Shown here one piece after another: positions 7,694-30,948 of a stretch of DNA of 32,000 bases. A model generated the notes under the pieces. That model did not search any database. It was not told where the DNA came from and was given only the letters and a program-made list of their open reading frames with translations. The position numbers and the translations under genes were made by a program. Positions within the stretch are counted from its first letter, which is position 1. Each line of letters starts with the position of its first letter. The stretch covers positions 2,470,530-2,502,529 of the forward strand of contig NZ_JAOEAL010000001.1 of assembly GCF_029835735.1 (NCBI RefSeq), written 5' to 3'. This DNA is from Shewanella sp. GD04112. GTDB lineage: Bacteria > Pseudomonadota > Gammaproteobacteria > Enterobacterales > Shewanellaceae.

Positions 7694-7695
7694 TT

Positions 7696-9218: not shown

Positions 9219-9220
9219 CG

Positions 9221-10120
9221 ATGAAGATGGCCAGCGATATCCCGTTAAGTTTTGTTGATAAATCCCCCTTAGCATTAAAACCGCTAAAAGCGGCACATCC
9301 TGAGAAAATTTATCAGCATAGAGCACGTCGTTTAGCACAATTAGCGCAGGATTCTCCGCTGGCGGATTATCTCAAGCTCTGCCAAATCCTAGTGTCGACG
9401 CAGCAAAAACTTGCGGCAACGGATATGGGCCCAGTACCAATGATTGACGCTGAGGTGCCATATCCGTTGTCCCTAAGCCAAACTCAAACGGCTCAGGATT
9501 GGTTAAAAGCATTGCAAGCATTGCTAACAAAATTGGTATCTCAAGTGCCCACGCATTTAGTGCCTGTTCTACAGGAGTTACAACAGCAGTCGCCAACTCA
9601 ATTGCTAGAGTGGGGCACTCAACTGAGGCAAGGGGAGTTTAGTGCCGTGCCTGCGCAGTACAGCCTATTTATTTGGGCGGGATTGTCCTTGTATTGGTCA
9701 CACTGGGCCCCCATGGTGATTGCACGAATGGATGTGAATAAGGTTAAACAGTCTAGCCTTTGCCCGGTGTGCGGCAGTCATCCCGTCGCCAGCATGATTG
9801 TCGATGAGCCACGGGAAGGGCTGCGCTATCTGCATTGCAGTCTGTGTGAAAGCGAGTGGCACTATGTGCGCGCCCATTGTACCTGCTGCGAGCAATCCCG
9901 GGAGATGTCAATTTGGTCGTTTGATGACCATAAGGCAGCCGTGCGGATTGAGAGCTGCGAGGCGTGCAAGGGATACACTAAGATGTTGTTTACCAACCGT
10001 TTGCCATTGTTAGATGCGGCAGCGGACGATATCGCATCGATGGGATTGGATGCCGAGCTCAATGCAAAGGGCTATGGTGCCACAACGGTAAATCCACTGT
10101 TACTTGCACATGAAGCCTAA
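9221..10120 (+). CDS. fdhE: Formate dehydrogenase accessory/maturation protein FdhE
   Basis: C-terminal rubredoxin-like cysteine pairs CPVCGS..LRYLHCSLCESEWHYVR..CTCCEQS...ESCEACKGYTK are typical of FdhE, and it sits in the conserved position after fdnI. Confidence 0.85.
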   Translation: MKMASDIPLSFVDKSPLALKPLKAAHPEKIYQHRARRLAQLAQDSPLADYLKLCQILVSTQQKLAATDMGPVPMIDAEVPYPLSLSQTQTAQDWLKALQALLTKLVSQVPTHLVPVLQELQQQSPTQLLEWGTQLRQGEFSAVPAQYSLFIWAGLSLYWSHWAPMVIARMDVNKVKQSSLCPVCGSHPVASMIVDEPREGLRYLHCSLCESEWHYVRAHCTCCEQSREMSIWSFDDHKAAVRIESCEACKGYTKMLFTNRLPLLDAAADDIASMGLDAELNAKGYGATTVNPLLLAHEA

Positions 10121-11866: not shown

Positions 11867-12733
11867 TCACAAGATCCACCGTTTTAAACTATGTGGCTGA
11901 GCGACCGTGAGCTGGTTAGCTTGAGGTGAAGATTTCAGCTTTTTTGTGTCAAGGCATATGTTTAGGCGTTTTACGTAATACTTAATCAAAGCTCTTCTGC
12001 AAGATACGAAAAACTGTGCTTCAAGCATCCCATAGTCTGCTTTTACAACCAGTTGCTGTTCTTGAGTAAGAAAGGGGTTCGTTGTGATTTCGAAAGTTTC
12101 TTCGATGTTCCAATCGTCATCATCTTCTTTGGTCAAAGAAGACTTATCGAGGATTTCAGGTTCATTCCTGAATCGGCTTAGAACAAAGTCTCGAAATCCC
12201 TTCTTCTCTTCACAGTAAGCTCGTACGTGCCATCTAAAACCATCGAAAACAAGGGTGTGCGGTGCAATGTTTCTTCCTCGCTCAGAAGGGTGCTCTAACG
12301 AAACATAGTCAACATCAACACATCGCTGCTCTCTTGCTGCTTGAAGCAAACGCCTAACGATAATTGGTGCAACATGGCGGTCAGGTACACTGAGCACGAT
12401 CGAGTTTGCTTGCCCTAGCCCTTGAAGGTCAAAACCATCAATATTTTCGTTAGTGTATTTGTTTAATAGAGACAGGTACTCGTTTGGCGTTCCCTGCGTA
12501 AAACGTGGTTTAAAGTCATTAGTGGGTCTATAGCCTTTAATCCCCCGGTCATGAACAAGCGGAGGTATTTCGAAAAGCTTCTGATAGTTAGCAATGTCTC
12601 TCGATGCTTGCTGCCGCCCGATGTTGAATGAATTGCAAAGATGATTGGTTGTGAGCCTGCCTTCCCAAAGGGCAACGATTTCAATGAGTCGAAATCTAAG
12701 AAGCTGCTCCCATTTAACGTCAGCGGTAACCAT
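11867..12733 (-). CDS. WYL-domain transcriptional regulator (N-terminal HTH + WYL), divergent from the muk/jet-like operon
   Basis: N-terminus: W.QLLRFRLIEIVALWEGRLTTNHLCNSFNIGRQQASRDIANY, an HTH. WYL core: RNIAPHTLVFDGFRWHVRAYCEEKKGFRDFVLSRF. The ATG at 12733 is preferred, because the 26-codon hydrophobic extension to 12811 would cover the promoter region. Confidence 0.75.
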   Translation of the reverse strand: MVTADVKWEQLLRFRLIEIVALWEGRLTTNHLCNSFNIGRQQASRDIANYQKLFEIPPLVHDRGIKGYRPTNDFKPRFTQGTPNEYLSLLNKYTNENIDGFDLQGLGQANSIVLSVPDRHVAPIIVRRLLQAAREQRCVDVDYVSLEHPSERGRNIAPHTLVFDGFRWHVRAYCEEKKGFRDFVLSRFRNEPEILDKSSLTKEDDDDWNIEETFEITTNPFLTQEQQLVVKADYGMLEAQFFVSCRRALIKYYVKRLNICLDTKKLKSSPQANQLTVAQPHSLKRWIL

Positions 12734-12759
12734 GTAATGCCTGTTTTTGCTACATGTTA

Positions 12760-12808
12760 ATGTATACAGACTATACATCAATAAAAACCACAAGTATATT
12801 GGGTATAC
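12760..12808. promoter_or_regulatory. Two GTATAC-containing palindromes in the divergent promoter region (candidate operators)
   Basis: ATGTATAcagacTATACAT (12760-12778) and GTATAttgggTATAC (12794-12808). Both lie between the WYL gene start (12733) and the operon start (12910). Confidence 0.4.
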
Positions 12809-12909
12809 CACTTACCAAACTCAACTTACTAAATTTGCGATAGAAAAATTGGTATTCGAGAAACATGGTAAAAATAGTGATCTAAAACGAGGAGCTTGCG
12901 CAGTTTCCT

Positions 12910-14241
12910 ATGTTCCAAACAGAAAGACTATCAGCTCTTTTAAACCAGGTTCGAATGAACGAGCCTGCATTACACATTGAGCCAAACGAATACCTTTATT
13001 TGGCAGCCATGAGCTTATGGAATGTAAACGACGATGACGATTACCGACTTGTCGACCCAGGATATAAGGAGGAACAGTGCAACGAAATATTCTCCTACGT
13101 TGACAGGTGGCTGGGTCAAGACGACATCACCTCATTCCGGACAAGTAATTTTCTAAAACGAGCTGTTGAACAGGGCCTCGTAATGCAGGCCGGAAGCTCG
13201 TTAAGAAACGCTGATGGCTTCTATCGACTTACTCAGCTGAGTCACGACCTCCTCAAGCCCTTTACCGGCGACACATTGATACAGAAAGAGTCACTTTCTC
13301 AGAGATATGTACGGTTGGAGATCTTGCTTGGGAACCTACTCGTCTTGAAGATAGAGGATGACGAAGAGTGGGCTAATGAGATTAAGGCTCAGCTACCTTC
13401 ATTTAGGGACCTTCTCGATGGTATTAACAAAAACCAGGAGGCCTTAATAAAAGGGTTTCAGCTTCAACGCAGCTCGATCCAGTCAGCAGCCAGCGGCTCT
13501 CTTGCGCAACAAATGCAGCACTTGATTGAGTTAATTGACGAGATTGCAGGCCAAATAAGGGACCTAAAATCGTTGATACTGAATGGGGCGGACAATGTGC
13601 TTTCTCTACTTCATGAAATCAAAGAGATGGCACATAACAGAAATGCTCCGATCAGACTTACCAATGCTATGGCTGATATTCATGACCAGCTGGATTCTAT
13701 TCGTCAGTTCTCTGGGCACTCTCTTCTGGAGCTAGCAGAGTTCTTTGAGCAAGTTTTATCCACTATCCGCCTAAAAATCACCCTAGATCCAAACGCGAAT
13801 CTCAATTTATTGATTGAAAAAGCAGTCCTGCAAATGGATCGGATGCCTTGGTCAATCTCTATTCTTGCGCCAGATCCTGTTGTGGAGCTCAGGGATTGGG
13901 AGGCTCCGCCTCCACCTTTGGAAAACGAACTGCCAAATGATGGCGACCCTGAAGTCATCCTTAGAAAGACCCCTAGCGACTACCTAGAAAAATTAGCTAA
14001 GGGACTCGTTGCGAGAATGTATGAGAGCGATAACGAGGTCGATATTTCAAAAGTTGCCGACCAGATCCTTTCCAATGAAGAGTTTCAATATAAAGACCGC
14101 CATCGGTTGCTGTTTTTCATCTTCGATGAGTTGATAAAAAACGGAGATTGGACACGCCCTGCCTATCACCCTGAGTGGGTACAATTAGCACACGATAATA
14201 ACGTTGAAATTGAACAACAGTGGTTCAAAAAATATGACTGA
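12910..14241 (+). CDS. jetA: MukF-like kleisin (JetA/MksF-class) subunit
   Basis: 443 aa; E. coli MukF is about 440 aa. The N-terminal winged-helix region ..FLKRAVEQGLVMQAGSSLRNADGFYRLTQLS.. resembles MukF ..[30 protein letters not shown]... There is an acidic/proline linker (WEAPPPPLENELPNDGDPE). The C-terminus EWVQLAHDNNVEIEQQWFKKYD resembles MukF [20 protein letters not shown]. The E. coli strings are from memory. Confidence 0.7.
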   Translation: MFQTERLSALLNQVRMNEPALHIEPNEYLYLAAMSLWNVNDDDDYRLVDPGYKEEQCNEIFSYVDRWLGQDDITSFRTSNFLKRAVEQGLVMQAGSSLRNADGFYRLTQLSHDLLKPFTGDTLIQKESLSQRYVRLEILLGNLLVLKIEDDEEWANEIKAQLPSFRDLLDGINKNQEALIKGFQLQRSSIQSAASGSLAQQMQHLIELIDEIAGQIRDLKSLILNGADNVLSLLHEIKEMAHNRNAPIRLTNAMADIHDQLDSIRQFSGHSLLELAEFFEQVLSTIRLKITLDPNANLNLLIEKAVLQMDRMPWSISILAPDPVVELRDWEAPPPPLENELPNDGDPEVILRKTPSDYLEKLAKGLVARMYESDNEVDISKVADQILSNEEFQYKDRHRLLFFIFDELIKNGDWTRPAYHPEWVQLAHDNNVEIEQQWFKKYD

Positions 14242-15016
14242 TCATCTATTTACACACGCTCAAGACTCAAAGAAACAGTACCTTACACTAGATGATGTAA
14301 TTGATGACCCCCTATTCGCGGATGTAGATTATCGCCTTAGGGGCGGGGTAAACATTACTAGTGAAGATGACCGGTTACATACCTTTCTAGGAGAGACGGA
14401 GAGTGTGCTTCGCAAGTTTTACGGCAAGTTACACCTGGCTCTAGAAGTCACGCCTGAGAAAGTTTATTACCTAAGGCCACAGCGTCGTTCAAATGTTCCT
14501 ACGACCCGATTGAACCAATTAGAAATGGTTATGGGTCTAACGATAGTTGCAATGCAATGGGAAAAAAATGCGACTGATTTCGAATGGATCCCCGTTGATT
14601 TTCTTATTGAACGATTGAAGTCTCAGCTGTCGGACGAACGGTTCGCTGAGTTGTATCGCCGTAAGCCGGGCATTCAGACAGACCATGATGTAGGGCGTGT
14701 GAGAGAGGAAACGTTGAAGAGACTCTCTAGACTGTCACGTCTGAGTTTTATTAGGCTCAACAGAGATGAGCAGACTTTCTGGGCAACTAATGCGATCTAC
14801 AGGTTTATCGAACCTTTGAAAGGCTTGAGCAGCGAAGACGAGTTGCCAGGCCGCATAAGTTCGTTAATCCAAGAGGGTTTTCTTACCGACTCACCTTCGC
14901 CCAGAGAAGAGTTAAGAGACACGCCAAGAACAGAGTCTGAACATTGGTCATCAGAAGGCCTAACTATCGAAGGTGATACTCGCGATATGTTTGATGCGGA
15001 GGAATATGATGCGTAA
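14234..15016 (+). CDS. jetB: MukE-like KITE (JetB/MksE-class) subunit
   Basis: DPLFADVDYRLRGG...FYGKLHLALEVTPEKVYYLRPQRRSNVPTTRLNQLEMVMG parallels E. coli MukE NPLFPALDSALRSG...[40 protein letters not shown] (from memory). It has an acidic C-terminal tail. ATG 14234 overlaps the upstream stop (ATGACTGA). Confidence 0.75.
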   Translation: MTDHLFTHAQDSKKQYLTLDDVIDDPLFADVDYRLRGGVNITSEDDRLHTFLGETESVLRKFYGKLHLALEVTPEKVYYLRPQRRSNVPTTRLNQLEMVMGLTIVAMQWEKNATDFEWIPVDFLIERLKSQLSDERFAELYRRKPGIQTDHDVGRVREETLKRLSRLSRLSFIRLNRDEQTFWATNAIYRFIEPLKGLSSEDELPGRISSLIQEGFLTDSPSPREELRDTPRTESEHWSSEGLTIEGDTRDMFDAEEYDA

Positions 15017-18000
15017 TTACCCATACATAAAGAGCCTGTCGCTTGTGGGCGTCAACGGAGTCTCTGCCAGAACCCTCGATTTAGTTAATCCTCATGAACA
15101 TCAGACTGATAGGCAATATGGCACCGTGGTTAGCCTTTTAGGCAAAAATGGTTCAGGGAAAACGACGCTACTTGGGACCTTTATGTTGGCTCTCTTACCC
15201 GATATTCGCTCGGTCAGTTTGGGAACATCGGATAATTTTACTCAGACGCAGAAGATGCAGGACGCAGAAATGTTTGAGCGCTTGGGTAATCCGTCTCTTA
15301 TTGGGTTAGAGGTTGTATCTCGTGCTGGTGAAAGAGCGCTGTTTATTGTTCGCTCTGAGCGAGAGACGGGGTCCCGCTTGAAGTTTGACACGTTCAGGGT
15401 TGGGTTGTTCGATAGTTTAGCACCACTTGATTTTCTTATCGTTCGTAACGGCAACATGGTTACGCCCAGAACTATAGATGGTATTCGAGATATAGCTGCC
15501 GAGCATGGCTGCCGACTACAAAGCTTCGACAAGATTGATAAATACATGCTGGCGTTGTTTAACGATGGTATTTTGCCCAGAACATTCAACCGTTCTAATG
15601 AGCGTTACCAATTAGGTCAGATTTTTCACAGCGCCATGTCAGGAAAAAGAGATCAAGCTATCGGCCGAGATCTAGCTGATTTCCTAATGACGCACTCAAG
15701 GACAAATATCAAAAGTGTGGTCGATGTGTTGTCTGGAACAATGCGAAAGCTTAGGCAGACAAGAGATGATCTGGCGCACAACTCCAAAGACTATGCGTTT
15801 TTCAAGGAGTTGTTAGAGAAGTCCTTCACTGTATCAGCTAAAGCATGGGCTCAAGCCGAGTACAATTTTTCTCGAGCAGATAAAGAAGCTACATCCTGTC
15901 GACAAGATGTTTCAGAGTGCAAAGTTTCTATTGAGAAGAGTGATCAGGATCTTACGGAGTGTCGTTCGAAACTAGATACAAGCGTTGAGAATAGAACATC
16001 ACTCGAGCAGGAAAGTGAACAGCTAAAGCCAAGACTTGCTTCTGCTGTTGAGGGCGAAATCTTCTACAAGCAGGGTAAACAAGCCTCTGTGAGTCTATTA
16101 AAGAAGGAAGCTCAACTTTACGAGAGTTTGAGTTTGTCCCAGTTGGCTGACGAAGGCGCTGACGCGTCGCGCAACAAAGTTGAACAAGCTAATCAAGATA
16201 TCTTGGATATCCAAGCACAGCTCGCAGATGTGCAAGAACGTTTTATCCTTCTTGAGAAAAAGGCGGGGCAATACCGAAATGCGAAGTCGTTATTAGATAG
16301 CGTCAAGAGCTGGTGTGGCGATAGCTTTGAACTAGCGAAGCTTAAGGGCATGATTGAAGAATACACTGCACAATCCAAACAGCTAGCGCTAGAGGCGGAC
16401 CAGCTGGGAAACAAGCTCAATAGTGCAGAGAATATCAATGAAATTCATGCTAAAGCTGCATCACTGATTCGACGCGCTGGCGATAGCATTGACCCAAACG
16501 TCGCAAAGAATTGGTTTATCTCTACAGAGCTTAGACTCGAAGAGGAACGCCCGCTAGCCGTTAGCCTTGAACAGATGAGAAATGGATTGAGTGCGTTGAA
16601 AAGGAATCATCGTACTGTGAACCGCATGCTTGATCGCTTTAAGCAAGCAAAGTTACCACGCATGCCTTCCAATGAATCTGAGTACCAACAGCTTACGGAA
16701 GACAGAGGAGAAGCTCTTGAGTCGGCGAAGGAGGTGAAAGCGAGTGTCGATGCTAGGTATGAGGACGAGCGACATATCCAGGAAGAGCTAAAGATCGAGG
16801 TTTCACGTCTCAAATCGCTGCGAACAGAGTGGCAAAATTATCAACCTGCGGTTGCACGTTTATATGAATGCTTCCCTGATACTCAATTCACGGCAGAGAT
16901 GTTAGATGGGTTGATTAAAAACACGCAGAGAGAACTCAGGTCATTACGAGAGAATAACTCCCGAATAGAGAGCAATATATTTTCTTTGAAAGAGAGGATC
17001 CTTTCACTCAGCAACAGGGAAACTGGGTCATTGGAAACCCTCCAACGTTTTGCCAGCGATGTTGGCGGAGTGGCCGTAGCGGACTTGTATAGCGATATAC
17101 CGTTAGAAGAAGCTGGATTCACCGAAGCGGCTTTAGGTCAGCTTATGTGCGCTATCGTAGTGAATGACCCGAGCGATGCGGCTAGAACGCTATTAGCTGA
17201 ATATGGTGATAACTGGCCATTACCTGACGTGATCTTAATGACTGTAAAAAACCACAGTCCTGATCAACTACGGAGTGGTGGCTATGACGCGGACCTGTTT
17301 TTTAAAGATCTTAGTCAAGAGTTTGTAGGTGCTGATCTAGACCTTAATCACAACGAAAATGATGTTCCTTGGGTAGTTCTCAGTGAACCCTTTGGCGGTA
17401 TACGTGTTAGCGGGGTGCCTACTGAACCAGTTTTGGGTAAAGAGGCTCGGGATAAGCTGATAGCAGATCTACAAATTGAGTTAAATTCAAAGCAAACTTT
17501 GTTTGACAGTAACGATGAGAATATATCGCTGCTGCAAAGTGGCCTAGAGCAAGCCAATCGAATCAACGTTAATCCCTCATTGGCTTTCGCTGTTGAGCCT
17601 AATGTTGAGCTCAAAAAACAGAAATTACAACAACAAGGTAATAAGGTAGCTGACCTGTACTCTCAAACGTTGCAAGCGACCAATCGCGTAAAAACCTTAG
17701 AACTACAATGCAGTTTGCTTGAACAGCATGCGGATTCAAGTGATTTGCTAGACGTTAACTTCGACAAGGAGATTATGGAAGCAGAGGAACAAATCATACG
17801 TTCTGAAAAGGCTAAAAAGTATGTCGATAGGTACGGCGGTACCTTCTCGCAGATAAAGCAGCAATACCCGAAGATTCGAGAAGATTATCAATCTGACATA
17901 GACACGCTAAAGCGACAACATCAACTCGCTGAACAAGATCTTAGCAATACCAACAACCGCAAGCGCGATTTAACCTCGCTTAACCAAGTGGCGAATCATC

Positions 18001-19562
18001 TCGCTGACGATTACGAGCAAGCACAAAACGATCTTGCGAAAGAAGATGGAAACGTAAGTTCATTGCGTGAGAGGCACAAACAGAAACGTGTCATGCTCGA
18101 TGAGTTGAAGGTTCAGTTGAGAGAAAGCGAAGATAAAGCACGCAAAAACAAAGAGGTACATCTTAAGCTTCAATCGGAATATTCTGTGTTAGAAGAGCAG
18201 GTTGCGGAATCAAAACGTAGTTTGTCAAAGCTGACTTACCCTTATTGCGAAGGACTCGAAAAACAACTTTCACTCGATAGCGAAACGATATCTAAACGAT
18301 TGAGAGCGGCTCAAGAGCAATGTGAATCACTCCAACTTAAGCAAGTATCATTAACCGAACGCCATAACACCCTACTCAAGCAAGTAGAATCCCTACAGAG
18401 TACATCAGTGATTGCAGAAGAGGCGCGTGAAAATGCAAATGGTATAAAGCAAAAGGTGCTGGATGCTCTGCCTGCCGGAGCCACAAAACATAAGCTAGAG
18501 CAAGAAATGGACGTCTATTTTAAACTGATGCATGAAGGTGAGGCCGTCCAATACACTAATGGGATTTACGCAATATCTGGATTGGTCAATCGCTATGGTT
18601 TGAGTCGAGATGATGAGTTCTCCCAAAAAATAAATAGTTTTAATCTAGAGGGAGGGACCACCCTGCCTAGTCTTTGCCAGCTGCATAGTGACGCTATTTC
18701 TTTGTTTCGTCGGCAAGCCCGAGGGGACATTATTCGTAGTTCCGAGCCGACAGAGATGCTTACACAATTGGATAGTGCGTGTAGTCTCGCTAGGAGAACA
18801 CTTGAAAGCGCCGAAGAGCAGTTTCTCACAGATAGAAATGAACTAGGAAATGCCATTGCCCGTCGTGTACAGGATGAGCAGAAAGCCATAAGAAGGCTAA
18901 GTGCTGAAATGATAGGAATAAGCTTTGGGCAAGTTGCGGCTATTCGTCTAGTACCTAAAAGCGTCCCTCATTTCGAAGCTACTTTGAAGGCTTTGAGAGG
19001 AAGCGACGATGTCATGGACGATCTCTTCAATAATGCTGAAGATGTAGAAGAAGCGCTCGCAACACTATATCAAAAAACCACTGGTGGCCGGATCGAGGGA
19101 GAAAAGCTGCTTGACCATAAGAACTACATCAATGTGGTAACAGAAATCCAGAGAGTTGGTAGTGAAGAATTTGAGTTATTGGATGACAAAACACTTTCAA
19201 CAGGAGAGCGAATTGGCTCTGGATTGGTTGTCTTAATAGCAATTCTAAAAAACTGGGGACGGGTCTCACATGAAAAACAACCTTTCTTAATCCCGTTAGT
19301 AATGGATGAAGCATCACGTTTGGACTCCGACGCTCAGAGAACGGTGCACCAGTTGGCGGTAAAGACCGGAAGTCAGATTGTAATTGCCGCACCTGAGTCG
19401 CAAGGAAAGATATCAGGTGTTGGCTATCAACTTGTCAGAAGTGCTTCTAAAGCAGGTAACAAAGAGAGCCGTGTAATCATTAGTGGGATCCGGGATGCTG
19501 ACAGTTTAGGGATTGATGAAGAAGCATTTATCGATTCGGTTGTGAGTGGGGCGGCGCATTGA
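15006..19562 (+). CDS. jetC: MukB-like SMC ATPase (JetC/MksB-class), 1518 aa
   Basis: - SD GGAGGA precedes ATGATG at 15006.
- N-terminal head: IKSLSLVGVNGVSARTLDL, Walker A GKNGSGKTT (15141-15167), ALLPD.
- Very long coiled coils.
- Hinge-like VADLYSDIPLEEAGFTEAALGQLMCAIVVNDPS.
- C-terminal head: SFGQVAAIRL...LSTGERIGSG...LVMDEASRLD (D-E at 19305-19310)...QIVIAAPE...GYQLVR.
- Each motif matches MukB motifs as I recall them. Confidence 0.85.
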   Translation: MMRNYPYIKSLSLVGVNGVSARTLDLVNPHEHQTDRQYGTVVSLLGKNGSGKTTLLGTFMLALLPDIRSVSLGTSDNFTQTQKMQDAEMFERLGNPSLIGLEVVSRAGERALFIVRSERETGSRLKFDTFRVGLFDSLAPLDFLIVRNGNMVTPRTIDGIRDIAAEHGCRLQSFDKIDKYMLALFNDGILPRTFNRSNERYQLGQIFHSAMSGKRDQAIGRDLADFLMTHSRTNIKSVVDVLSGTMRKLRQTRDDLAHNSKDYAFFKELLEKSFTVSAKAWAQAEYNFSRADKEATSCRQDVSECKVSIEKSDQDLTECRSKLDTSVENRTSLEQESEQLKPRLASAVEGEIFYKQGKQASVSLLKKEAQLYESLSLSQLADEGADASRNKVEQANQDILDIQAQLADVQERFILLEKKAGQYRNAKSLLDSVKSWCGDSFELAKLKGMIEEYTAQSKQLALEADQLGNKLNSAENINEIHAKAASLIRRAGDSIDPNVAKNWFISTELRLEEERPLAVSLEQMRNGLSALKRNHRTVNRMLDRFKQAKLPRMPSNESEYQQLTEDRGEALESAKEVKASVDARYEDERHIQEELKIEVSRLKSLRTEWQNYQPAVARLYECFPDTQFTAEMLDGLIKNTQRELRSLRENNSRIESNIFSLKERILSLSNRETGSLETLQRFASDVGGVAVADLYSDIPLEEAGFTEAALGQLMCAIVVNDPSDAARTLLAEYGDNWPLPDVILMTVKNHSPDQLRSGGYDADLFFKDLSQEFVGADLDLNHNENDVPWVVLSEPFGGIRVSGVPTEPVLGKEARDKLIADLQIELNSKQTLFDSNDENISLLQSGLEQANRINVNPSLAFAVEPNVELKKQKLQQQGNKVADLYSQTLQATNRVKTLELQCSLLEQHADSSDLLDVNFDKEIMEAEEQIIRSEKAKKYVDRYGGTFSQIKQQYPKIREDYQSDIDTLKRQHQLAEQDLSNTNNRKRDLTSLNQVANHLADDYEQAQNDLAKEDGNVSSLRERHKQKRVMLDELKVQLRESEDKARKNKEVHLKLQSEYSVLEEQVAESKRSLSKLTYPYCEGLEKQLSLDSETISKRLRAAQEQCESLQLKQVSLTERHNTLLKQVESLQSTSVIAEEARENANGIKQKVLDALPAGATKHKLEQEMDVYFKLMHEGEAVQYTNGIYAISGLVNRYGLSRDDEFSQKINSFNLEGGTTLPSLCQLHSDAISLFRRQARGDIIRSSEPTEMLTQLDSACSLARRTLESAEEQFLTDRNELGNAIARRVQDEQKAIRRLSAEMIGISFGQVAAIRLVPKSVPHFEATLKALRGSDDVMDDLFNNAEDVEEALATLYQKTTGGRIEGEKLLDHKNYINVVTEIQRVGSEEFELLDDKTLSTGERIGSGLVVLIAILKNWGRVSHEKQPFLIPLVMDEASRLDSDAQRTVHQLAVKTGSQIVIAAPESQGKISGVGYQLVRSASKAGNKESRVIISGIRDADSLGIDEEAFIDSVVSGAAH

Positions 19563-20509
19563 TGCATGGACTACTGGAGGATGTAAAGTTAACACCTAAG
19601 CAGGCACTGGCACTTATTGATAAGCTTATTGAGCGCGGGAAAGTGTTGCCCAACCAGAGAGATAGTTTACTGATTGAGCGCCTTGAGCAACTTGGCATAG
19701 TGAAACGAGTGGGGAGTTACTGGCAGCTGTGTGAGCCCCAACGCATTGAGAGTGTTCGTAACCAAATAACGCAATATACTTTGCAAAAAAACAGGCCTGG
19801 TATCTTACGAAAGATGCCCGTTGTACATCATAAAAGTGCTGCTGCCTGGCGAGGACATAGCAAAAGTGGGCAAGGCGAGGCTCTTCAGAAAGGTCAACTG
19901 ATAAGTACAGACGATGTAGTACGGGTCCGCACTCAGAAGACCGGGTTCGTAATATACAGCGATAACGCCACGATTGATACTGACTTGGAGACTCTGCAAA
20001 GGACTGAAGTCAGCTTACCAGAACGGTTGTACAAAGACGCTCATGCGCCCTGTGTCGCTGGGGTAAAGTTGGTGTTGACTGTCGAAAACTTGGGCACATT
20101 TGTTGACTTCCCCATGGTGGATGGACTCGTATTGGTTTACTCATCAGGGAATAACTTTGCATCATCGGTTTGTTTTATCAAGCGCTTCTTGGAAGAGGTG
20201 ACCTGGGCACACTTCCCGGACCTTGATCCCAATGGTCTGATCATATCAACGCAAATGGCAGATACCCTCAACAAACCTTGCAATGTTTGGATTCCACCTC
20301 ATTGGGATAGGGTCCGAGCTCAGCCGCTGGTTTCTGGTAAAGGAAAAAAGGTATGGGGGGAAGCCCCTGCCTGCCCTGAAATCGCAAGTTTGCAGGAAAC
20401 AAGCCATTGGGTTGAGCAAGAGGTTCTCGTCTTAGATCAACGAAGCGTCAAAGCCGTCAGTGAGCTTGTTAGTGAGCCTAAGCTCCGGCTAATAACTCTT
20501 CAATACTAA
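19562..20509 (+). CDS. jetD: JetD/MksG-type Toprim (topoisomerase-VI-like) nuclease subunit, 315 aa
   Basis: The start overlaps the jetC stop (TGATG). Toprim signature: VLTVENLGTFVDF (Glu codon 20084-20086), WAHFPDLDPNGLII (DxD 20228-20236), then HWVEQEVL. The N-terminus looks winged-helix-like (LIDKLIERGKVL..LEQLGIVKRVGSYWQL). Confidence 0.7.
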   Translation: MHGLLEDVKLTPKQALALIDKLIERGKVLPNQRDSLLIERLEQLGIVKRVGSYWQLCEPQRIESVRNQITQYTLQKNRPGILRKMPVVHHKSAAAWRGHSKSGQGEALQKGQLISTDDVVRVRTQKTGFVIYSDNATIDTDLETLQRTEVSLPERLYKDAHAPCVAGVKLVLTVENLGTFVDFPMVDGLVLVYSSGNNFASSVCFIKRFLEEVTWAHFPDLDPNGLIISTQMADTLNKPCNVWIPPHWDRVRAQPLVSGKGKKVWGEAPACPEIASLQETSHWVEQEVLVLDQRSVKAVSELVSEPKLRLITLQY

Positions 20510-20699: not shown

Positions 20700-22010
20700 A
20701 TGAGTATTGAGAAGTTTAGAAGCGTGGAGGAACTAAAACAGTTCTTCGAAGAAGGAGGTAACCCTTGGTTTGATGCAGAATTTTCTCCTCAGACTCAGAG
20801 TATCGTCGAAGCATTGGATGCAAAAGGAGCCTTTCTCAATAAGTGGTGGGTAAGGACCGCCATGGATTGGAAGTGTCCCGCCTGTAAAAGGACTAAGCCC
20901 CAAATAGCCAAACTAGATAATCGTAGATATGCCTCCTGCAAACTGGAGGAGCATCACGATCACATGAAGGATACGGTGCGCACGTTGTTCGAAGAAATAT
21001 CTTCGAACAGAGAAGTCGTTGTTGCAACTGAGCTAGCTAAGCGGTTTGCAATCAGGACGTCCTTTGCAATTTCCGCTTACGATAACACGGTGATTTGCGC
21101 GGATTGTAATAAAGCAGACGGTATTGCAAAACGGATGGTCAAAACTCACAGTGACTTTTCATACTCTCCAGCAGAAATTGGGCGATTTGTAAAACCATCA
21201 GATAATCGAGAGCATGAAATTGACGCGGATATCGCCAAGGAAATTTGGAACGAGAATCTGGAAACGTTCAATAAGCGTATGCAGTTGGCAAAAGTTATAG
21301 CGGAGTTGGCTGCCAGCGATTCACATTGGTATCAACCCTCAGAACCAACAGCCAAGCAAGTCAATGATTCTGCCAATTACAAGTTTAACTTGCGTGGATT
21401 AAGAGACCTTCACGATGATCCTGAAAAGCTTCTATACAATACAACGCCTTTCAAGGGAAACCACTCATCATGGAGATTGAATCCCAAGCCTTTCACAAGT
21501 ACGAGACCAACTGATGGACAAATAGCACATTTATCTAACACCAGGGGGCGGTACTGGAACAGGTACGACGACAGCTGGCAATGCCCATGTTGTGGTCGTT
21601 TAAAGCGGGAATGTCTTAAGCCGTCTAAAAATAACCCTTGGGTGTTTGAAGTAAAGGCCATTCTAGCTCATGATTCTGAGCATCAGTCTTTTGCTGAAGA
21701 AATTAAGGTGTGCAACGAATGTTTCAATGCTGCAAACCATCTTGGCCAGGAAGCAATAAAAGAAGCCAAAGAACAAGATGAGACGGTAGATGTATATTTT
21801 CCACATAGCTTGATACAACTGGAAGAGTTGAAGTCTGTTATAACGCCGAGATTACACTCCTCACATATCATTGATAATGACTTGGCTGAAAACGTGGTTC
21901 GCAATGCCATCAGGCGCATTATTGATGAAGACTATAACCAATCCCCAAAGCACAAGATGAAGCTGCAAGAACAGTTCAGTACAATGCTTTATGGTGGAAG
22001 TTGTGAATAG
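20700..22010 (+). CDS. Protein with two endonuclease-VII/HNH-like zinc modules (436 aa), otherwise unassigned
   Basis: SD aaggatacttaATG. Module 1: WKCPACKRTK...KLEEHHDHMKD...(about 47 aa)...VICADCNKADGIAKR. Module 2: WQCPCCGRLKREC...ILAHDSEHQSFAEEIKVCNECFNAANHLGQ. The layout CxxC...H.DH...CxxCN..(D/E)G is that of the T4 endonuclease VII branch of the HNH fold. Confidence 0.55.
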   Translation: MSIEKFRSVEELKQFFEEGGNPWFDAEFSPQTQSIVEALDAKGAFLNKWWVRTAMDWKCPACKRTKPQIAKLDNRRYASCKLEEHHDHMKDTVRTLFEEISSNREVVVATELAKRFAIRTSFAISAYDNTVICADCNKADGIAKRMVKTHSDFSYSPAEIGRFVKPSDNREHEIDADIAKEIWNENLETFNKRMQLAKVIAELAASDSHWYQPSEPTAKQVNDSANYKFNLRGLRDLHDDPEKLLYNTTPFKGNHSSWRLNPKPFTSTRPTDGQIAHLSNTRGRYWNRYDDSWQCPCCGRLKRECLKPSKNNPWVFEVKAILAHDSEHQSFAEEIKVCNECFNAANHLGQEAIKEAKEQDETVDVYFPHSLIQLEELKSVITPRLHSSHIIDNDLAENVVRNAIRRIIDEDYNQSPKHKMKLQEQFSTMLYGGSCE

Positions 22011-22857: not shown

Positions 22858-23065
22858 TCTTTCATTGGTTGTTTCTTGTCTATCCAGACTAGGCCCGTAA
22901 CTTGTCGATGCCCCATTCAAAGTTATCAACACGACTTGAGATGAGCATCACTAGCCTAATGTTGACCCAAACTAAGTAATGCGACAAAGTCCCCCTGTGT
23001 CAGGATTGTTGTCACCCCTAAATAATCATTATGTTTAAAGACAGGGTGCGGCAAAAGAGAACGAT

Positions 23066-23566
23066 ATGGCTCGGTATTCACCAGAACGTAAAGAAGCGAT
23101 CCTTAAAAAATTATTACCTCCTCACAACTTAACGGTCGCAGAGGTCGCTCGGGAAGAAGGCATCGCGGTGCAAACCTTGTATCATTGGCGAGATATTGCC
23201 AGAAAAGAAGGTCGCCCCGTGCCAGGTAAAACATTAACAGCCGATGATTGGTCGGCTGAAGCAAAACTTGCCGTGATTATTGAAACAGCGCCGCTGTCGG
23301 AAGCGGAGATAAACCAGTATTGCCGTGAAAAGGGCTTGTTCCGCGAGCAAGTACAGCAGTGGAAACAGGATTGTTTAGCTGGTTTTCAAACCTCAGAAGT
23401 ACAAACTAAAACCATTAAACAGCAGGCTAAGGCTGACAAAGCCGAAATCAAATCGCTGCAACGGGAATTGCGCTATAAGGAGAAAGCGCTGGCTGAAGCT
23501 GCTGCGTTACTGGTGCTCAGAAAAAAGCTCAATGCGCTCTGGGGGGACGACAGCGAGGAGAGCTAA
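23066..23566 (+). CDS. IS3-family transposase OrfA (HTH + leucine zipper)
   Basis: MARYSPERKEAILKKLL..LTVAEVAREEGIAVQTLYHWR is an HTH, followed by a coiled-coil tail KAEIKSLQRELRYKEKALAEAAALLVLRKKL. Confidence 0.8.
   Translation: MARYSPERKEAILKKLLPPHNLTVAEVAREEGIAVQTLYHWRDIARKEGRPVPGKTLTADDWSAEAKLAVIIETAPLSEAEINQYCREKGLFREQVQQWKQDCLAGFQTSEVQTKTIKQQAKADKAEIKSLQRELRYKEKALAEAAALLVLRKKLNALWGDDSEES
23521..23527 (+). promoter_or_regulatory. Programmed -1 ribosomal frameshift heptamer A AAA AAG
   Basis: The heptamer is in the X XXY YYZ register of orfA (codons AGA AAA AAG). The -1 frame is open from here into orfB (..AQCALGGRQRGELTPLPERIALI..). Confidence 0.7.
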
Positions 23567-23571
23567 CCCCC

Positions 23572-24621
23572 TTGCCTGAGCGCATAGCATTGATTGCCTT
23601 AATCCAAGAGGCCTATACCAATGGTGCTCGCCTTTATAAGGCTTGTGCTGAAACGGGCCTCAGTAAGCGTACCTATCGACGTTGGTATCGAGAAGGTCAA
23701 GTGCAAGCTGATTTAAGGCCAACAGCAGCTCGACCAGAGCCAGCAAATAAACTCGAAGAACATGAGCGACAACAGATATTAAGTGTGTGCAATCAAGCGG
23801 AGTACGCCAGCTTACCCCCGTCGCAAATTGTGCCAACATTATTAGATAACGGGATTTATATCGCCTCGGAATCCAGCTTCTACAGAGTGTTAAATGCTCA
23901 TGGTCAACTTAACCATCGTGGCCGCACTCAGGCTGCGGTCAATCGAAGCAAACCGTTGAGTTATCGGGCAGATGGGCCGAATCAAGTGTGGTCATGGGAC
24001 ATCACTTATTTAGCCTCAATCGTCAAAGGCCAGTTCTACTATTTGTACCTGTTTGAAGATATTTACAGTAGAAAAATAGTGGGTTACGAAGTTCATGAGC
24101 AAGAAAGTGGGGAATATGCCGCTGCGCTAATCCAACGCTGTCTGTTACGCGAGCAATGCTTTAACACGCCATTAGTGCTGCATTCTGATAATGGGGCGCC
24201 GATGAAGTCACTGACCATGAAAGCCAAGCTGGAAGAGCTTGGTATTACGGCATCATTAAGTCGGCCGCGGGTGAGTAATGACAACCCCTTTTCAGAGTCG
24301 TTATTTAAAACGTTGAAATACCGCCCACAGTGGCCGGCATCAGGTTTTAGCTGCTTAGCAACAGCAAGAGAATGGGTGGAAAAGTTTGTAACCTGGTACA
24401 ACGATGAGCATAAACACAGCCAGCTAAATTTTGTCTCACCAGGGCAACGTCATGCACTGCAAGATGGCGCTATTTTAGCGAAGCGCAAGAAAGTGCTTGA
24501 GGCGGCGAAGGAAAGAAAACCGATGCGTTGGTCTACAGAGATCAGAAATTGTGAAGCGGTTGGCGCTGTAACACTCAACCCAGATAAGGCACCAGAAGAA
24601 GGCGTAATAAATGCAGCTTAA
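23572..24621 (+). CDS. IS3-family transposase OrfB (DDE integrase core; expressed as an OrfAB fusion)
   Basis: WSWDITYL (D), LVLHSDNGAPM (D), SNDNPFSESLFKTLKYR (E); rve-type core. The frame is -1 relative to orfA. Confidence 0.8.
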   Translation: MPERIALIALIQEAYTNGARLYKACAETGLSKRTYRRWYREGQVQADLRPTAARPEPANKLEEHERQQILSVCNQAEYASLPPSQIVPTLLDNGIYIASESSFYRVLNAHGQLNHRGRTQAAVNRSKPLSYRADGPNQVWSWDITYLASIVKGQFYYLYLFEDIYSRKIVGYEVHEQESGEYAAALIQRCLLREQCFNTPLVLHSDNGAPMKSLTMKAKLEELGITASLSRPRVSNDNPFSESLFKTLKYRPQWPASGFSCLATAREWVEKFVTWYNDEHKHSQLNFVSPGQRHALQDGAILAKRKKVLEAAKERKPMRWSTEIRNCEAVGAVTLNPDKAPEEGVINAA

Positions 24622-24764
24622 TATTTAAACAAAGAGTGACAACTATCTTGAAAAACACCGAAGTCGCCGACTCTAACTATGGCGATTCTGCGCCGCTTAC
24701 TACTAATAATCATTAAGTTAATTATTCTTAAATATCTGAAAGGAAGCACCTATGATAGGCATTA

Positions 24765-25106: not shown

Positions 25107-26018
25107 TTAGAAAATGGAAATTTATCTCCTCAAGATGCTGAGAAGCAATTAAGCGACATCTTAGTTCCGTTATTAAATGAAGATGGGTATAACATTGTTC
25201 AGACTCCTTTTCGCGGTGACATTGGAGTAGATTTTATTGCTGAGAAGCAACTTTCCACTAACCTAGAGCAAGTGGGAATCGAATATAAGCACTATAAATC
25301 TGCTGTAGGTGTCGATGCTGTTCGCCGGTTACTGGGAACAACATTTACTCACAACTTTGACCGTTTAATTTTAGTAACCAAATCTCGTTTTACTAAAGCT
25401 GCCCTTGAGCTTGCGAATTCGGCTTTACCAGTCAAGCTTGAACTAATTGACTTAGATGCTCTAAGAGCGTGGGTGCAGAGAGCAGAAAAAACTGAAGACT
25501 ATGACTTCGAACTAGTAAATATTATTCGTTCCAATATTAGCGAGCGGTTAGCAGTGCTAATAGCTAAAAATCCGCGATATCTAATGGATATTGAATGGAG
25601 AGAGCTTGAGTATGTTATTCAAACCGTTTTTGAAGAGCTAGGGTTCAGCGCAGAACTTACCCCAGGAAGCAAAGATGGCGGTAAAGATTTAGTGCTTACC
25701 TGTAGGATTTCTGGGCAAGATCATACATATTACGTAGAGCTGAAGCACTGGAGATCCCAACAAAAAGTAGGTGGACAAGCTGCTAGAGGTTTCCTGAAAG
25801 TGATTGTTAATGAAGAAGTGAATGGTGGGTTATTTCTTTCTTCATATGGTTATTGTGAGAATGCGTTTGAAATGTTGACTGAAATTGACAGAAAACATTT
25901 AAAGTTCGGCGATCAGAAAAAAATCGTTACATTATGTACACAATACGTTAAGTCTAAATCTGGTATTTGGTCTCCTACTAGCGGTTTATCGGAAGTATTG
26001 TTTGAACAAACTATATAA
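25107..26018 (+). pseudogene. Tandem Mrr-like (PD-(D/E)xK restriction-endonuclease fold) domain protein with no credible start for domain 1
   Basis: Domain 1: GYNIVQTPFRGDIGVDFIAEK...VGIEYKHYKS..VGVDAVRRLLG...LILVTKSRFTKAA. Domain 2: LGFSAELTPGSKDGGKDLVLT...YYVELKHWRS..VGGQAARGFL..GGLFLSSYGY. The frame is open from 25107, immediately after TAG 25104-25106. The first in-frame start (GTG 25272) falls inside the E-x-K motif of domain 1. Confidence 0.5.
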
Positions 26019-26046
26019 ATTCGCCTAACAAGGCGCTCAAGAATGA

Positions 26047-26069
26047 CAAAAAACGCTTGGCGTTTTTTG
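26047..26069. terminator. Bidirectional terminator-like palindrome (A6-stem-loop-T6)
   Basis: caaaaaacgc ttg gcgttttttg, 29 nt after the Mrr-like stop codon. The GC core of the stem is short. Confidence 0.4.
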
Positions 26070-26277
26070 CATCTTAGCTTTGCGTTAACCCATAGAAATT
26101 TTTATCCGAAAATGTCGAGTTAGAGTTAAGGCTTTAACTCGGAATTGTCCAATTACTTGATAGAGCATTTAATACAAATGAAAGAATAGGGCGGAATAAA
26201 AGTAGTCACAAAATTAGTGTTTTAAGATGCTTATTACATTGACAAATGCCATACATTTTTTACAAGGAAGCATCTTC

Positions 26278-26748
26278 ATGATATCAGTAACTTTTCACGA
26301 AAACTCGAGGCGTACACGTCAATTCAAGTCTGAAAATGGAGCTTTGAAGGCCGTATGGAAATGGCTTAAAGCAACAGAAGACGATAACGCCTATGCAGTG
26401 ATTATTGGTCCTATGTATTCTGAGCCAAGAGTCATCAAAGGCTGGCAAGAACTTCCATTCAGTGAACCTGAAAATTTAGACTTTTTGCAGACTAAGGAAT
26501 GGCGTCGACTGAGACAACAGGCCTTTGAGTTATATGGAAACTTTTGTGCCTGCTGTGGTAGAGGTCCAAAAGATGGCGTAGTGCTTCATGTAGATCATAA
26601 AAAACCTCGTTCGAAATATCCAAAACTTCAAGATGACATCAACAATCTTCAGATTCTTTGTGAAGAACACAACCAAATGAAATCCAATACATCTGAGCGC
26701 GATTGGGCTCAGTGGTGCCAAGCCAACTCTGTACGTGGCACTAAATAG
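26278..26748 (+). CDS. HNH endonuclease (small, stand-alone)
   Basis: Classical motif CACCGRGPKDGVVLHVDHKKPRSKYP....NLQILCEEHNQMKSN. The ATG at 26278 follows aaggaag; the track start at 26227 is less likely. Confidence 0.8.
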   Translation: MISVTFHENSRRTRQFKSENGALKAVWKWLKATEDDNAYAVIIGPMYSEPRVIKGWQELPFSEPENLDFLQTKEWRRLRQQAFELYGNFCACCGRGPKDGVVLHVDHKKPRSKYPKLQDDINNLQILCEEHNQMKSNTSERDWAQWCQANSVRGTK

Positions 26749-27368: not shown

Positions 27369-27400
27369 GGGAGGGGGCGCTCCGCTTGCCTCCCCCTCCC
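27369..27400 (-). terminator. GC-rich hairpin immediately after the zot-like stop codon
   Basis: gggaggggg (27369-27377) pairs with ccccctccc (27392-27400) across a 14-nt loop. There is no clean U tract on the minus strand, so a terminator or attenuator role is tentative. Confidence 0.35.
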
Positions 27401-28740
27401 TACCTATTTGCAAGCGAGTATTCACGGTCAGATTGATTAGTTTCAGGTTTGACCTTAATCAAGGGCTGACAAGTGATAAAAGTAGTAAAGTCATTAAATT
27501 TAAGTCTGGCTAAACATTCAGTTATAGGTGAGACAACAAATCCAACCGAACTAGGTAAAAAAACCTCATCAGTAACGGGATTGTAAAAGGAATAATCATA
27601 ATGAACTAAGCCATTGGATTTTTTTACATACTGGGAACCTGAAATATAAACATCCTTTGTAGCATCAGAAACGAACTTAGTTAAAAGCTGTGTTTCAGCA
27701 TCATCAAGTAAAGATGATGATTTAGGCAAAAGAGAAACTTTTGACTTGGGCTCATTAGGGGATGCAGTCTCAGGCGTTTGGAGAACTGAGTCAGGGACAG
27801 CAGAGGTTTTATCAAAAAACAATGTATTGGCAAATGAGTAAACAGAAAAAACAACAACAAAAATAAGAATAATCAAAATATAAAATATCTTGGGCATCTT
27901 AAATTTATGGGTATGCAGTTCAGCACTAAAATAAGAGCCATAGAAATTCGTTGGCCTCTTAATTAATGACTTTTGGCAATTTTTGACATCGTGATAATCA
28001 TCAACATCAAAACTTTTTGAGTTCTGATAACGAGCGACACGGTTAGAGTTAAACGCATTATGATAGTGAACATGGCGATTGACTAAACGCCTTACGTTAC
28101 TATCTAAAAGCATTCTATCCTGTGTAATTAAATGTATATCGTAACCATCATGGCGGTGAGTCTCAAATTTTGAAATATGAGGTGGAACTGTAGAACCCAC
28201 AGGACGAGGCGGGAAAAATTGCTGACACTCATCAATTAGGATAATGCTCTGCTTTGGTAGATTGAACCAATCCTTAGGGTTAGCAAAATGAGTAAAATGT
28301 AAATTCAAGTGCTCAAGGTGTGAGAACTCAACCTTATCGTAAGGCATATTGCTTAGGAACTCATCAAGCAGAGCCGTCTGCTTTGATGAATAAAGTTTTT
28401 TAACCCAAAACAGCCAAGTGTCTAGATGGTTGGCCGTATTGTAATAAGGCTCAAGCCAAGGAACGTCAGACAGTTGAATCAAATCACCGTTATCGTGAAC
28501 CCGTTTGATAATTTTACGAATGCGCTTTAGTGCCTGTTTGTTCTTCAAACGGTACATATAAAGACCGTAGAACCAGCCAGAAAAACTAGAGGCAACCTCA
28601 AAATCAAGCATCAACAACTTGATGTTATTATAAAAAATTGGCCTAGTGCCATTATTAGCGCCAACAAGATAAGCAATGGTATTCAGCGATTTAGACGCGC
28701 CCGGCTTCCCTGTAACTAACTCTAACATTATGCGCTCCAA
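27400..28740 (-). CDS. Zot/pI-like phage assembly ATPase
   Basis: N-terminal P-loop ELVTGKPGASKS, a Walker-B-like IILIDECQQFF, a single central TM helix (IFYILIILIFVVVFSVYSF), then a periplasmic C-terminal domain. This is the architecture of filamentous-phage gene I/Zot proteins. Confidence 0.8.
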   Translation of the reverse strand: MERIMLELVTGKPGASKSLNTIAYLVGANNGTRPIFYNNIKLLMLDFEVASSFSGWFYGLYMYRLKNKQALKRIRKIIKRVHDNGDLIQLSDVPWLEPYYNTANHLDTWLFWVKKLYSSKQTALLDEFLSNMPYDKVEFSHLEHLNLHFTHFANPKDWFNLPKQSIILIDECQQFFPPRPVGSTVPPHISKFETHRHDGYDIHLITQDRMLLDSNVRRLVNRHVHYHNAFNSNRVARYQNSKSFDVDDYHDVKNCQKSLIKRPTNFYGSYFSAELHTHKFKMPKIFYILIILIFVVVFSVYSFANTLFFDKTSAVPDSVLQTPETASPNEPKSKVSLLPKSSSLLDDAETQLLTKFVSDATKDVYISGSQYVKKSNGLVHYDYSFYNPVTDEVFLPSSVGFVVSPITECLARLKFNDFTTFITCQPLIKVKPETNQSDREYSLANR

Positions 28741-29078
28741 TCAACAGGTGATTTGTCGCCCGGCTTACGCCAAACAAGCTGCCTAGAGTAGCCGCTTTTG
28801 GAGACTCCTTTTAATACCATAAGCGCAACGCCGCTAGACATTGCAATATTTAAAGCCGTATCAATCCCAAGTAGGTGAATAAAAGTGGCTATATGAGGAA
28901 ATATAATTGAAGATGCAGAAGCATTTAAACGGTTAATTATTTCGTCAAAAATAAAACCTACTCCCGCATAAGTAACTGTACCAAAGCCAATAGCAACACC
29001 AATACGAGCAACAGAAGCGGTAATAAATTGACCAAGGAAAGGAAAAATAGAAGCAAGTAATAAAGGTATGAATTGCAT
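28728..29078 (-). CDS. pVI-like minor coat/membrane protein
   Basis: 116-aa polytopic hydrophobic protein located between the pIII-like and Zot-like genes, with overlapping stop/start. Assignment is positional only. Confidence 0.5.
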   Translation of the reverse strand: MQFIPLLLASIFPFLGQFITASVARIGVAIGFGTVTYAGVGFIFDEIINRLNASASSIIFPHIATFIHLLGIDTALNIAMSSGVALMVLKGVSKSGYSRQLVWRKPGDKSPVDWSA

Positions 29079-29087
29079 ATTTACCCC

Positions 29088-30659: not shown

Positions 30660-30729
30660 ATTAAATCCTGTAATGTGATAAGCATAAAACCCCTAAGGAG
30701 GGGCAAGCCCCTCACAGAGAAAACGACTA

Positions 30730-30933: not shown

Positions 30934-30948
30934 AAATCACCTATTTAG

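Follow-up and report, generated by a model that had tools for sequence, protein, structure and literature searches.

A compact Toprim nuclease behind MukBEF-like subunits in a Shewanella island, probably the effector of an accessory Wadjet-group system

What a nuclease gene is doing at the end of an operon whose other products resemble MukBEF, and how so short a nuclease could be brought into action there, are the questions raised by a 32,000-nucleotide stretch of the genome of Shewanella sp. GD04112 (contig NZ_JAOEAL010000001.1, positions 2,470,530 to 2,502,529; hereafter the window). According to our analysis, the product of the open reading frame (ORF) at 19562-20509 is very probably the subunit that cuts DNA in an accessory, plasmid-restricting relative of the chromosome-folding machine MukBEF. 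We further consider it likely that this protein is the effector nuclease of a four-gene Wadjet-group system with a motor of the MukBEF clade, carried as an accessory island copy and acting by the mechanism proposed below. The four genes are:

12910-14241, forward strand: MukF-like kleisin, 443 residues
14234-15016, forward strand: MukE-like KITE protein, 260 residues from the ATG chosen by the gene caller (the mechanical ORF starts at TTG 14204)
15009-19562, forward strand: MukB-like SMC (structural maintenance of chromosomes) ATPase, 1517 residues by the gene caller (the mechanical ORF starts at GTG 14973)
19562-20509, forward strand: MksG/JetD-family Toprim nuclease, 315 residues (ATG at 19562, stop codon at 20507-20509)

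Successive genes overlap by 8, 8 and 1 nucleotides, with the nuclease gene last; the start of the KITE gene follows the gene calls on identical contigs. The TGA stop codon of the 1517-residue SMC gene and the ATG of the nuclease share a single A (TGATG), which is a classic layout for translational coupling. The operon has the gene architecture of the broad Wadjet group (MksBEFG), with co-directional F, E and B genes and a flanking G gene.

The nuclease and its catalytic site

The protein (WP_041412634.1, also Shewana3_2098 in Shewanella sp. ANA-3) is named 'Wadjet anti-phage system protein JetD domain-containing protein' by NCBI. A first-pass annotation, made by a model from the letters alone, had called its Toprim signature complete and proposed it as the DNA-cleaving subunit of a MukBEF-like complex. 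The three motifs quoted there were all present:

20072-20101, forward strand: VLTVENLGTF (residues 171-180), motif of the first Toprim strand, with the metal-binding glutamate E175 at 20084-20086
20210-20245, forward strand: HFPDLDPNGLII (residues 217-228), DxD motif, with D220 (20219-20221) and D222 (20225-20227)
20405-20428, forward strand: HWVEQEVL (residues 282-289), WxExE motif, with E285 and E287

The family around this protein proved large. Eight relatives were returned by the first database search and more than 540 proteins by a profile built from those, and an exhaustive profile search yielded 167 clusters at E < 1e-30, nearly all of 315-340 residues and matched over their full length. 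In an alignment of 125 family members, with 27-32% identity to the window protein in most rows, residues E175, N176, G178, F218, D220, D222, P223, G225, W283, E285 and E287 are invariant. The Pfam model JetD_C (PF09983) matched the window protein with 27.7 bits (E 2e-6), above its gathering cut-off of 22 bits, and matched all 125 members.

A single-sequence phmmer search of the PDB gave nothing relevant, the best match being a chance one to DNA polymerase epsilon (E 1). The family profile aligned the ENLG and GDLD motifs with VENL and GDLDLDG of Corynebacterium glutamicum MksG (8B7F; E 0.004) and with IETSG and DGDPYG of Methanocaldococcus jannaschii Topo VI-A (1D3Y; E 0.009). In MksG, E236 and D279 bind metal and are required for cleavage (Weiss et al. 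2023); the mutants MksG E236A and JetD E248A are inactive, and the MksG Glu-x-Glu pair E349/E351 corresponds to two glutamates that have been put forward as the JetD nucleophiles. The distance from the Toprim glutamate to the ExE pair is 110 residues in the window protein and 113 in MksG (E236 to E349/E351), the equivalence of the two pairs being one of spacing and conservation rather than of residue-level alignment. Invariance, profile alignment and the spacing and conservation of the ExE pair together make the assignment of the acidic residues sound, as the first-pass annotation had it.

The fold pointed the same way. The AlphaFold2 model of the window protein (mean predicted local distance difference test score, pLDDT, of 78) was confident in the Toprim domain, and a Foldseek search of the PDB with it returned MksG 8B7F first (4e-6), followed by Topo VI-A 1D3Y (1e-5), Spo11 and Pseudomonas aeruginosa JetD 7TIL (4e-3). 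The model of a Sorangium family member (pLDDT 92.6) matched MksG (5e-8), JetD (2e-7) and Topo VI-A (2e-7), with about 230 residues superposed on Topo VI-A at about 5 Å. Global TM-scores to 8B7F, 7TIL and 1D3Y were only 0.3-0.5, which we attribute to a flexible orientation of the two predicted domains. Four features that mark the MksG/JetD family, namely the Toprim glutamate and DxD, the ExE pair, the fold and linkage to an SMC operon, were thus found. Because it is a JetD/MksG-type Toprim protein with an intact metal site and the ExE pair, encoded behind three Muk-like subunits, the product is very probably a nuclease and the DNA-cleaving subunit it was taken for.

With Topo VI-A and Spo11 the protein shares the extended Toprim fold, the metal-binding glutamate and DxD, and a winged helix N-terminal to the Toprim domain, whereas the catalytic tyrosine of their CAP domain and their B subunit have no equivalent in the window family. 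No tyrosine is invariant, or nearly so, across the 125-sequence alignment, and none of the six tyrosines of the window protein is conserved; Tyr258, a candidate catalytic residue of MksG, is likewise not conserved in the family. The lack of a conserved tyrosine, together with that of a B subunit, leads us to expect a hydrolytic nuclease and not a religating topoisomerase. Weak sequence scores to JetD models might instead be read as the mark of a decaying or catalytically dead remnant. We hold this to be extremely improbable, given that the full-length reading frame is identical across many independent contigs, that the catalytic residues are invariant family-wide and that the coupling to the SMC gene is preserved.

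The motor subunits and the relatives of the operon

The MukBEF-like scaffold supposed by the first-pass annotation was borne out by the PDB matches of the three upstream products. The kleisin, 21% identical to Escherichia coli MukF, had MukF chains as its sole significant PDB sequence matches (E 6e-6; the one other row was at chance level, E 0.57), matched the NCBIfam MukF model over its full length with 71 bits (cut-off 407) and gave weak Pfam matches to the MukF winged-helix and middle domains. The KITE protein, 29% identical to E. coli MukE, matched only MukE chains in the PDB (E 2e-14), with 82.8 bits to Pfam MksE, 66 bits to Pfam MukE and 63 bits to NCBIfam MukE (cut-off 250). The SMC protein matched only MukB chains (E 8e-53, full length; 20-33% identity to E. 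coli MukB) and scored 1527 bits over its full length against the NCBIfam MukB equivalog (cut-off 699); it has the Pfam MukB N-terminal and MukB_hinge domains, and its Walker A, LSTGE signature and Walker B DEA motifs are intact and align with those of E. coli MukB. The NCBIfam model NF003422 (MukB equivalog) gave 1380-1530 bits on the defence-island SMC proteins of this clade at only about 20-33% identity, and is evidently broader than housekeeping MukB.

Likeness to housekeeping MukBEF, then, covers the structural matches of all three subunits and the length, head and hinge of MukB. The differences are that MukBEF has no nuclease gene and occupies the conserved core locus cmoM-mukFEB, whereas the window operon is island-borne with a fourth gene, and that only the SMC protein passes its equivalog cut-off, the kleisin and KITE protein falling far below those of MukF and MukE. 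Nor were the type-specific JetA/JetB/JetC recognition and the arm-CAP JetD of Wadjet types I-III (Doron et al. 2018/PADLOC) found here. Judged from these matches, the motor is of the MukBEF clade and not of Wadjet types I-III. Type III Wadjet had been considered, the PADLOC JetC3 profile being 1473 long and JetD3 about 345, and was rejected when the window, Sorangium and Kluyvera proteins failed to score as type III.

A scan of one genome per species placed relatives of the nuclease at 117 loci. A large SMC-like ORF directly precedes the G gene at 72 of the 81 related loci, from several phyla and usually with a 4-nucleotide overlap, the median SMC length being 1473 residues; kleisin- and KITE-like genes, where detectable or gene-called, are found upstream, which gives the order F-E-B-G. 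Relatives in Pseudoalteromonas, Vibrio, Kluyvera, Phytobacter, Klebsiella indica, Tatumella and others make up a close subfamily, full-length and 35-41% identical, that has the F-E-B-G order throughout and SMC proteins of 1515-1538 residues. In the distant members, which come from Oxalobacteraceae, Myxococcota, Planctomycetota and other phyla, the gene is again preceded by an SMC of about 1470 residues, usually with a 4-nucleotide overlap. At eight distant loci (L019, L024, L025, L028, L030, L031, L033 and L063) the preceding SMC-like ORF has only about 1010-1090 residues, and these may form a further subclass. Plasmids carry practically no members of the nuclease family, as would fit an anti-plasmid role.

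Among 5,426 complete E. coli genomes, a single one, DETEC-P881, carries a Kluyvera-type operon (92.6% nucleotide identity; locus L088, NZ_CP116100.1 170466-178218), adjoining genes for a UvrD helicase and an ATP-dependent nuclease. All 5,426 have the genuine mukB, so the island operon is an accessory second copy. The Prokaryotic Genome Annotation Pipeline (PGAP) names the island SMC 'mukB, chromosome partition protein MukB', the KITE protein 'MukE' and the last gene 'JetD domain-containing', an annotation trap in a genome that also has the genuine mukFEB. The island kleisin of this strain is split into two 'hypothetical' genes (309 and 167 residues), possibly by a frameshift.

Taken at face value, the MukB name and the equivalog score of the SMC protein would suit a second chromosome-organising condensin like Pseudomonas MksBEF, with the Toprim protein serving chromosome metabolism, for example on entangled DNA, and nuclease-free Wadjet-group complexes do organise chromosomes. 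That the window operon is such a condensin we judge very unlikely: the operon type is accessory and rare, as in E. coli beside the real mukB, and lies in low-GC islands with defence genes; the kleisin and KITE protein miss the MukF and MukE cut-offs by a wide margin; and a protein family with no conserved tyrosine cannot religate as a topoisomerase does.

The system is not new, since NCBI names the nuclease JetD-like and the operon has already been catalogued. In the Wadjet-group catalogue of Bürmann et al. (Cell 2025, PMC7617805), in which MukBEF, like several other members, is without the MksG/JetD nuclease, Data S1 has, as cluster 636, the FEBG operon of Shewanella sp. FJAT-53555 (S. halotolerans), whose MksB is 1518 residues long and whose MksG is the 315-residue QYJ90829.1. 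QYJ90829.1 and the window nuclease share a 90%-identity cluster, and the FJAT-53555 operon, grouped with operons of its clade in Salmonella Paratyphi B SPB7, Vibrio parahaemolyticus and V. natriegens, is the same system in the same F-E-B-G order with no material difference. Data S1 also contains the operons of Sorangium and Massilia, which belong to the wider family. In the tree of the same paper, E. coli MukB stands among nuclease-bearing operons of this type: the pair that it makes with Endozoicomonas (both FEB, without a nuclease) has as its sister group, at a bootstrap support of 100, the FEBG operons from Sorangium, Massilia and Plasticicumulans, and the branch after that, within a clade likewise supported at 100, unites the FEBG operons of Salmonella SPB7, V. 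parahaemolyticus, Shewanella and V. natriegens (PMC7617805). The paper lists the operon and places it in the tree; its text does not discuss the clade or the architecture of the nuclease. A system named 'type IV Wadjet' or 'MukBEFG' was looked for in the literature without a relevant result, and the description that suits the operon best is a MukBEF-clade variant of Wadjet, already catalogued but uncharacterised.

The short N-terminal module and the proposed mechanism

The first-pass annotation had read the start of the protein as a winged-helix-like segment and had suspected, from a length below the roughly 400 residues it gave for JetD, that the arm docking onto the motor is reduced or different. 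Two features of the N-terminal third bear on this:

19589-19789, forward strand: CAP-like winged helix and one long helix (residues 10-76; AlphaFold, Foldseek)
19820-19867, forward strand: family-conserved motif VVHHKSAAAWRGHSKS (residues 87-102; family consensus NRRTAAAL..HSK, with K101 invariant)

The winged helix was recovered in the AlphaFold2 model as helices 12-25 and 32-43 and a hairpin at 47-56 (strands 47-50 and 53-56), at a pLDDT of about 90, followed by a long helix at 59-76. Foldseek with the N-terminal part alone returned winged helices of MarR and CRP/FNR proteins, weakly (E 0.03-0.5; probability 0.7-0.99). From the models, residues of about 86-305 can be read as an extended Topo VI-A-type Toprim domain and the first 80 or so as a separate CAP-like module; the core two-module plan, a CAP-like winged helix and a Topo VI-A-type Toprim domain, is kept.

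As for length, the protein is indeed shorter than the JetD proteins studied so far. Its Toprim glutamate is residue 175, against 236 in MksG, 226/248 in characterised type I JetD, 295 in type II and 298 in type III. On the PADLOC JetD1 profiles the Toprim motif lies about 70-100 positions further from the N-terminus, with a C-terminal part of similar length; the shortening is therefore N-terminal. The comparison itself needs correcting: 315-340 residues is the norm of this family, and the Wadjet-group catalogue contains MksG genes of 264-303 residues from Anaeromyxobacter, Acinetobacter, Vibrio breoganii and Psychrobacter (PMC7617805), so that compactness is not unusual and the 400-residue yardstick is specific to characterised JetD of types I-III. 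Reduction of the N-terminus itself was upheld. Across the 125 family members, Pfam and PADLOC models left the N-terminal part without a match, and the Shewanella protein moreover has two helices fewer than its relatives, those that follow the winged helix elsewhere (69-78 and 85-98 in the Sorangium model). In the alignment to JetD/MksG families, proposed as a way of listing the missing N-terminal elements, hhalign of the family with type II JetD (Bacillus pBb) and with a compact BEFG-type MksG (Acinetobacter pB18-1) aligned the Toprim core only.

Set beside known effectors, the window nuclease shares with type I JetD (E. coli GF4-3; P. aeruginosa PA14, 7TIL) the CAP-like module joined to a Toprim domain, the glutamate and DxD without a catalytic tyrosine, and the association with an SMC-kleisin-KITE motor. 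In type I JetD a rigid arm-CAP module contacts the JetC larynx (F919) and the JetB IFDR peptide, whereas the N-terminal module here is about 80 residues long and matches no N-terminal JetD Pfam family. C. glutamicum MksG is the best structural match, with the Toprim glutamate and the first DxD aspartate aligned and the ExE pair at comparable spacing, and it too is the last gene of an F-E-B-G operon; it differs in its elongated N-terminal domain and in its partner MksB, which at about 1100 residues is not MukB-like, compared with 1517 residues for the window SMC protein. Docking therefore probably differs from that of type I JetD, a minimal winged-helix module standing in place of the larger arm-CAP, and the different activation geometry put forward by the first-pass annotation is plausible on this account.

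Residues 87-102 may be a candidate docking or DNA-contact element, which is a guess. The positions around K101 reach 90% family consensus, and the counterpart in the Sorangium model is a strand and a helix (pLDDT of about 88). The Shewanella protein is off the consensus at about five of these positions (V89, H90, S92, W96 and G98). A fuller proposal has the nuclease docking through the winged helix and residues 87-102 on a motor of MukBEF geometry with long, elbow-folded arms, unlike type I, and its clade being the surviving nuclease-bearing form from which MukBEF arose by loss of the G gene; as a joint claim we find this doubtful.

The mechanism we propose is taken by homology from types I and II. 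In these an SMC-kleisin-KITE dimer extrudes DNA; once its motors have met on a small circle, a dimer of JetD docks, puts a kink in the DNA that is left and cleaves it. Cleavage of circular DNA by these types needs ATP, the SMC ATPase and the JetD Toprim glutamate. In the Shewanella system, a dimer of MukB/F/E-like motors would load on DNA and extrude loops with ATP. On a small closed circle extrusion would run to completion, the two motors converging on the segment that remains, and this converged state would recruit the compact nuclease dimer and relieve its inhibition. Both strands would then be cut at the Mg2+-dependent Toprim site (E175 and D220/D222, helped by E285/E287) without a covalent tyrosine intermediate, while a large chromosome would be spared because extrusion never completes on it. 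That the logic of types I and II carries over is argued from the intact ATPase and Toprim sites, the strict gene coupling, the lack of a tyrosine and the island context; docking is the least secure step.

Several points weigh against this account. The PADLOC models of Wadjet types I-III gave no Jet match for the kleisin or the KITE protein, a chance-level match to JetC3 only for the SMC protein (E 0.0026, 13.6 bits) and weak matches to JetD; the outcome was the same for the Kluyvera and Sorangium relatives, while the Bacillus type II JetD scores 318 bits. Residues 77-150 of the window nuclease are poorly predicted, with low AlphaFold confidence, and since there is no sequence similarity to JetD N-domains the known docking contacts cannot be assumed. 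C. glutamicum MksG cut plasmid DNA without partners in vitro, at high concentration, which leaves the motor dependence of the window nuclease less than certain, and the target could be something other than plasmids.

The result with MksG, and the missing type I docking arm, would also suit a free-standing nuclease that is not activated by the SMC complex, its linkage to the motor genes reflecting only co-regulation or localisation. This we rate as very unlikely indeed: a nuclease free of regulation would be toxic, the translational coupling to the SMC gene and the strict synteny with it extend across phyla, and JetD proteins of types I and II are inactive alone and not interchangeable between the types. 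The stand-alone, chromosomal and remnant alternatives are disfavoured by the accessory distribution, by the invariance of the catalytic residues and by the conservation of the coupling, and the motor-activated, plasmid-restricting effector remains the reading we prefer.

The island and what the system may mean

GC content is about 0.49-0.52 in the core genes at window positions 1-10120 and 0.37-0.46 from about 10,100 to 32,000, a fall that sets the left island boundary just after fdhE; the core genes beside it, for formate dehydrogenase and FdhE, encode proteins identical to those of Shewanella. Within this Shewanella defence island the operon is an accessory copy, acquired horizontally, and its neighbours there are:

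11867-12811, reverse strand: BrxR-family WYL regulator, divergent from the operon (288 residues from the gene-caller start)
20700-22010, forward strand: 436-residue ORF, 190 nucleotides after the nuclease gene
22992-24660: IS3-family insertion of 1,669 bp (orfA 23066-23566, orfB 23572-24621)
25272-26748, forward strand: Mrr_cat restriction-endonuclease-fold and HNH proteins, further candidate defence genes downstream in the island
27400-28740, reverse strand: Zot-like protein, within a segment (27400-32000) that also holds unannotated ORFs

The regulator gave 52.9 bits to Pfam WYL and E 1e-24 to PADLOC WYL, with WHD_BrxR, WYL and BrxR_CTD domains recorded on identical contigs. BrxR regulators, which are common in Shewanella, are known to accompany defence systems, Wadjet among them, and this one is a probable regulator of the island or of the system. 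The Zot-like gene and the unannotated ORFs on the reverse strand at 27400-32000 suggest a filamentous-phage-like (inovirus-like) element.

These neighbours bear on the target. A defence complex with other targets or another outcome, whether circularised phage genomes, phage-plasmids, excised integrative elements or abortive infection by cutting of the chromosome, would fit an island whose nucleases are typical of anti-phage islands, a BrxR-type regulator of the kind that accompanies many phage-defence systems, and an inovirus-like Zot gene nearby; arms of MukB length (1517 residues) are also unlike the arms of type I JetC, and what a ring can thread has been related to the length of its arms. 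Characterised Wadjet, on the other hand, had no effect on the phages tested and acts on circular plasmids, nothing here points to a different substrate, and the near absence of the family from plasmids fits restriction of plasmids, so that we regard a different target as unlikely.

The 436-residue ORF, in which two HNH-like CxxC...HH.H...CxxC-N modules can be made out by eye, had no significant Pfam, PADLOC, NCBIfam or PDB sequence match; it was considered as a fifth subunit and rejected, as it accompanies the system only in Shewanella and is missing after the operon in other genera. The IS3 insertion is missing from the otherwise 99.99-100% identical metagenomic contig L001, the alignments overlapping by 5 bp at the junction. 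Window and L001 diverge after 26973, where L001 has a tyrosine integrase and the window the Zot-like gene. A promoter and terminator scan was uninformative, with fewer promoter-like sites than in shuffled sequence and no more terminator-like ones.

The novelty of the locus is limited, the gene having been named JetD-like and the operon catalogued before, and the compactness of the nuclease, which is real, is ordinary for its clade. For annotation the consequence is practical: PADLOC-type models miss the system, and the PGAP label 'MukB' on its SMC protein can mislead. In the laboratory, the system may hinder plasmid work in Shewanella sp. ANA-3 and its relatives.

Coexistence with the real MukBEF in Enterobacteriaceae is shown directly for E. 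coli DETEC-P881, and is to be expected for Vibrio and Shewanella. The operon is thus a natural system for two questions, namely how a nuclease is coupled to a MukB-type motor and how two Muk-like machines are kept apart in one cell. Descent of MukBEF from a plasmid-restricting Wadjet system by loss of the nuclease has been a matter of speculation in reviews and preprints, and in the only published tree MukBEF is bracketed by the nuclease-bearing clade of which the operon is a member. If this clade is indeed the form from which MukBEF arose, it would offer a direct experimental handle on the change from a defence motor to a chromosome organiser.

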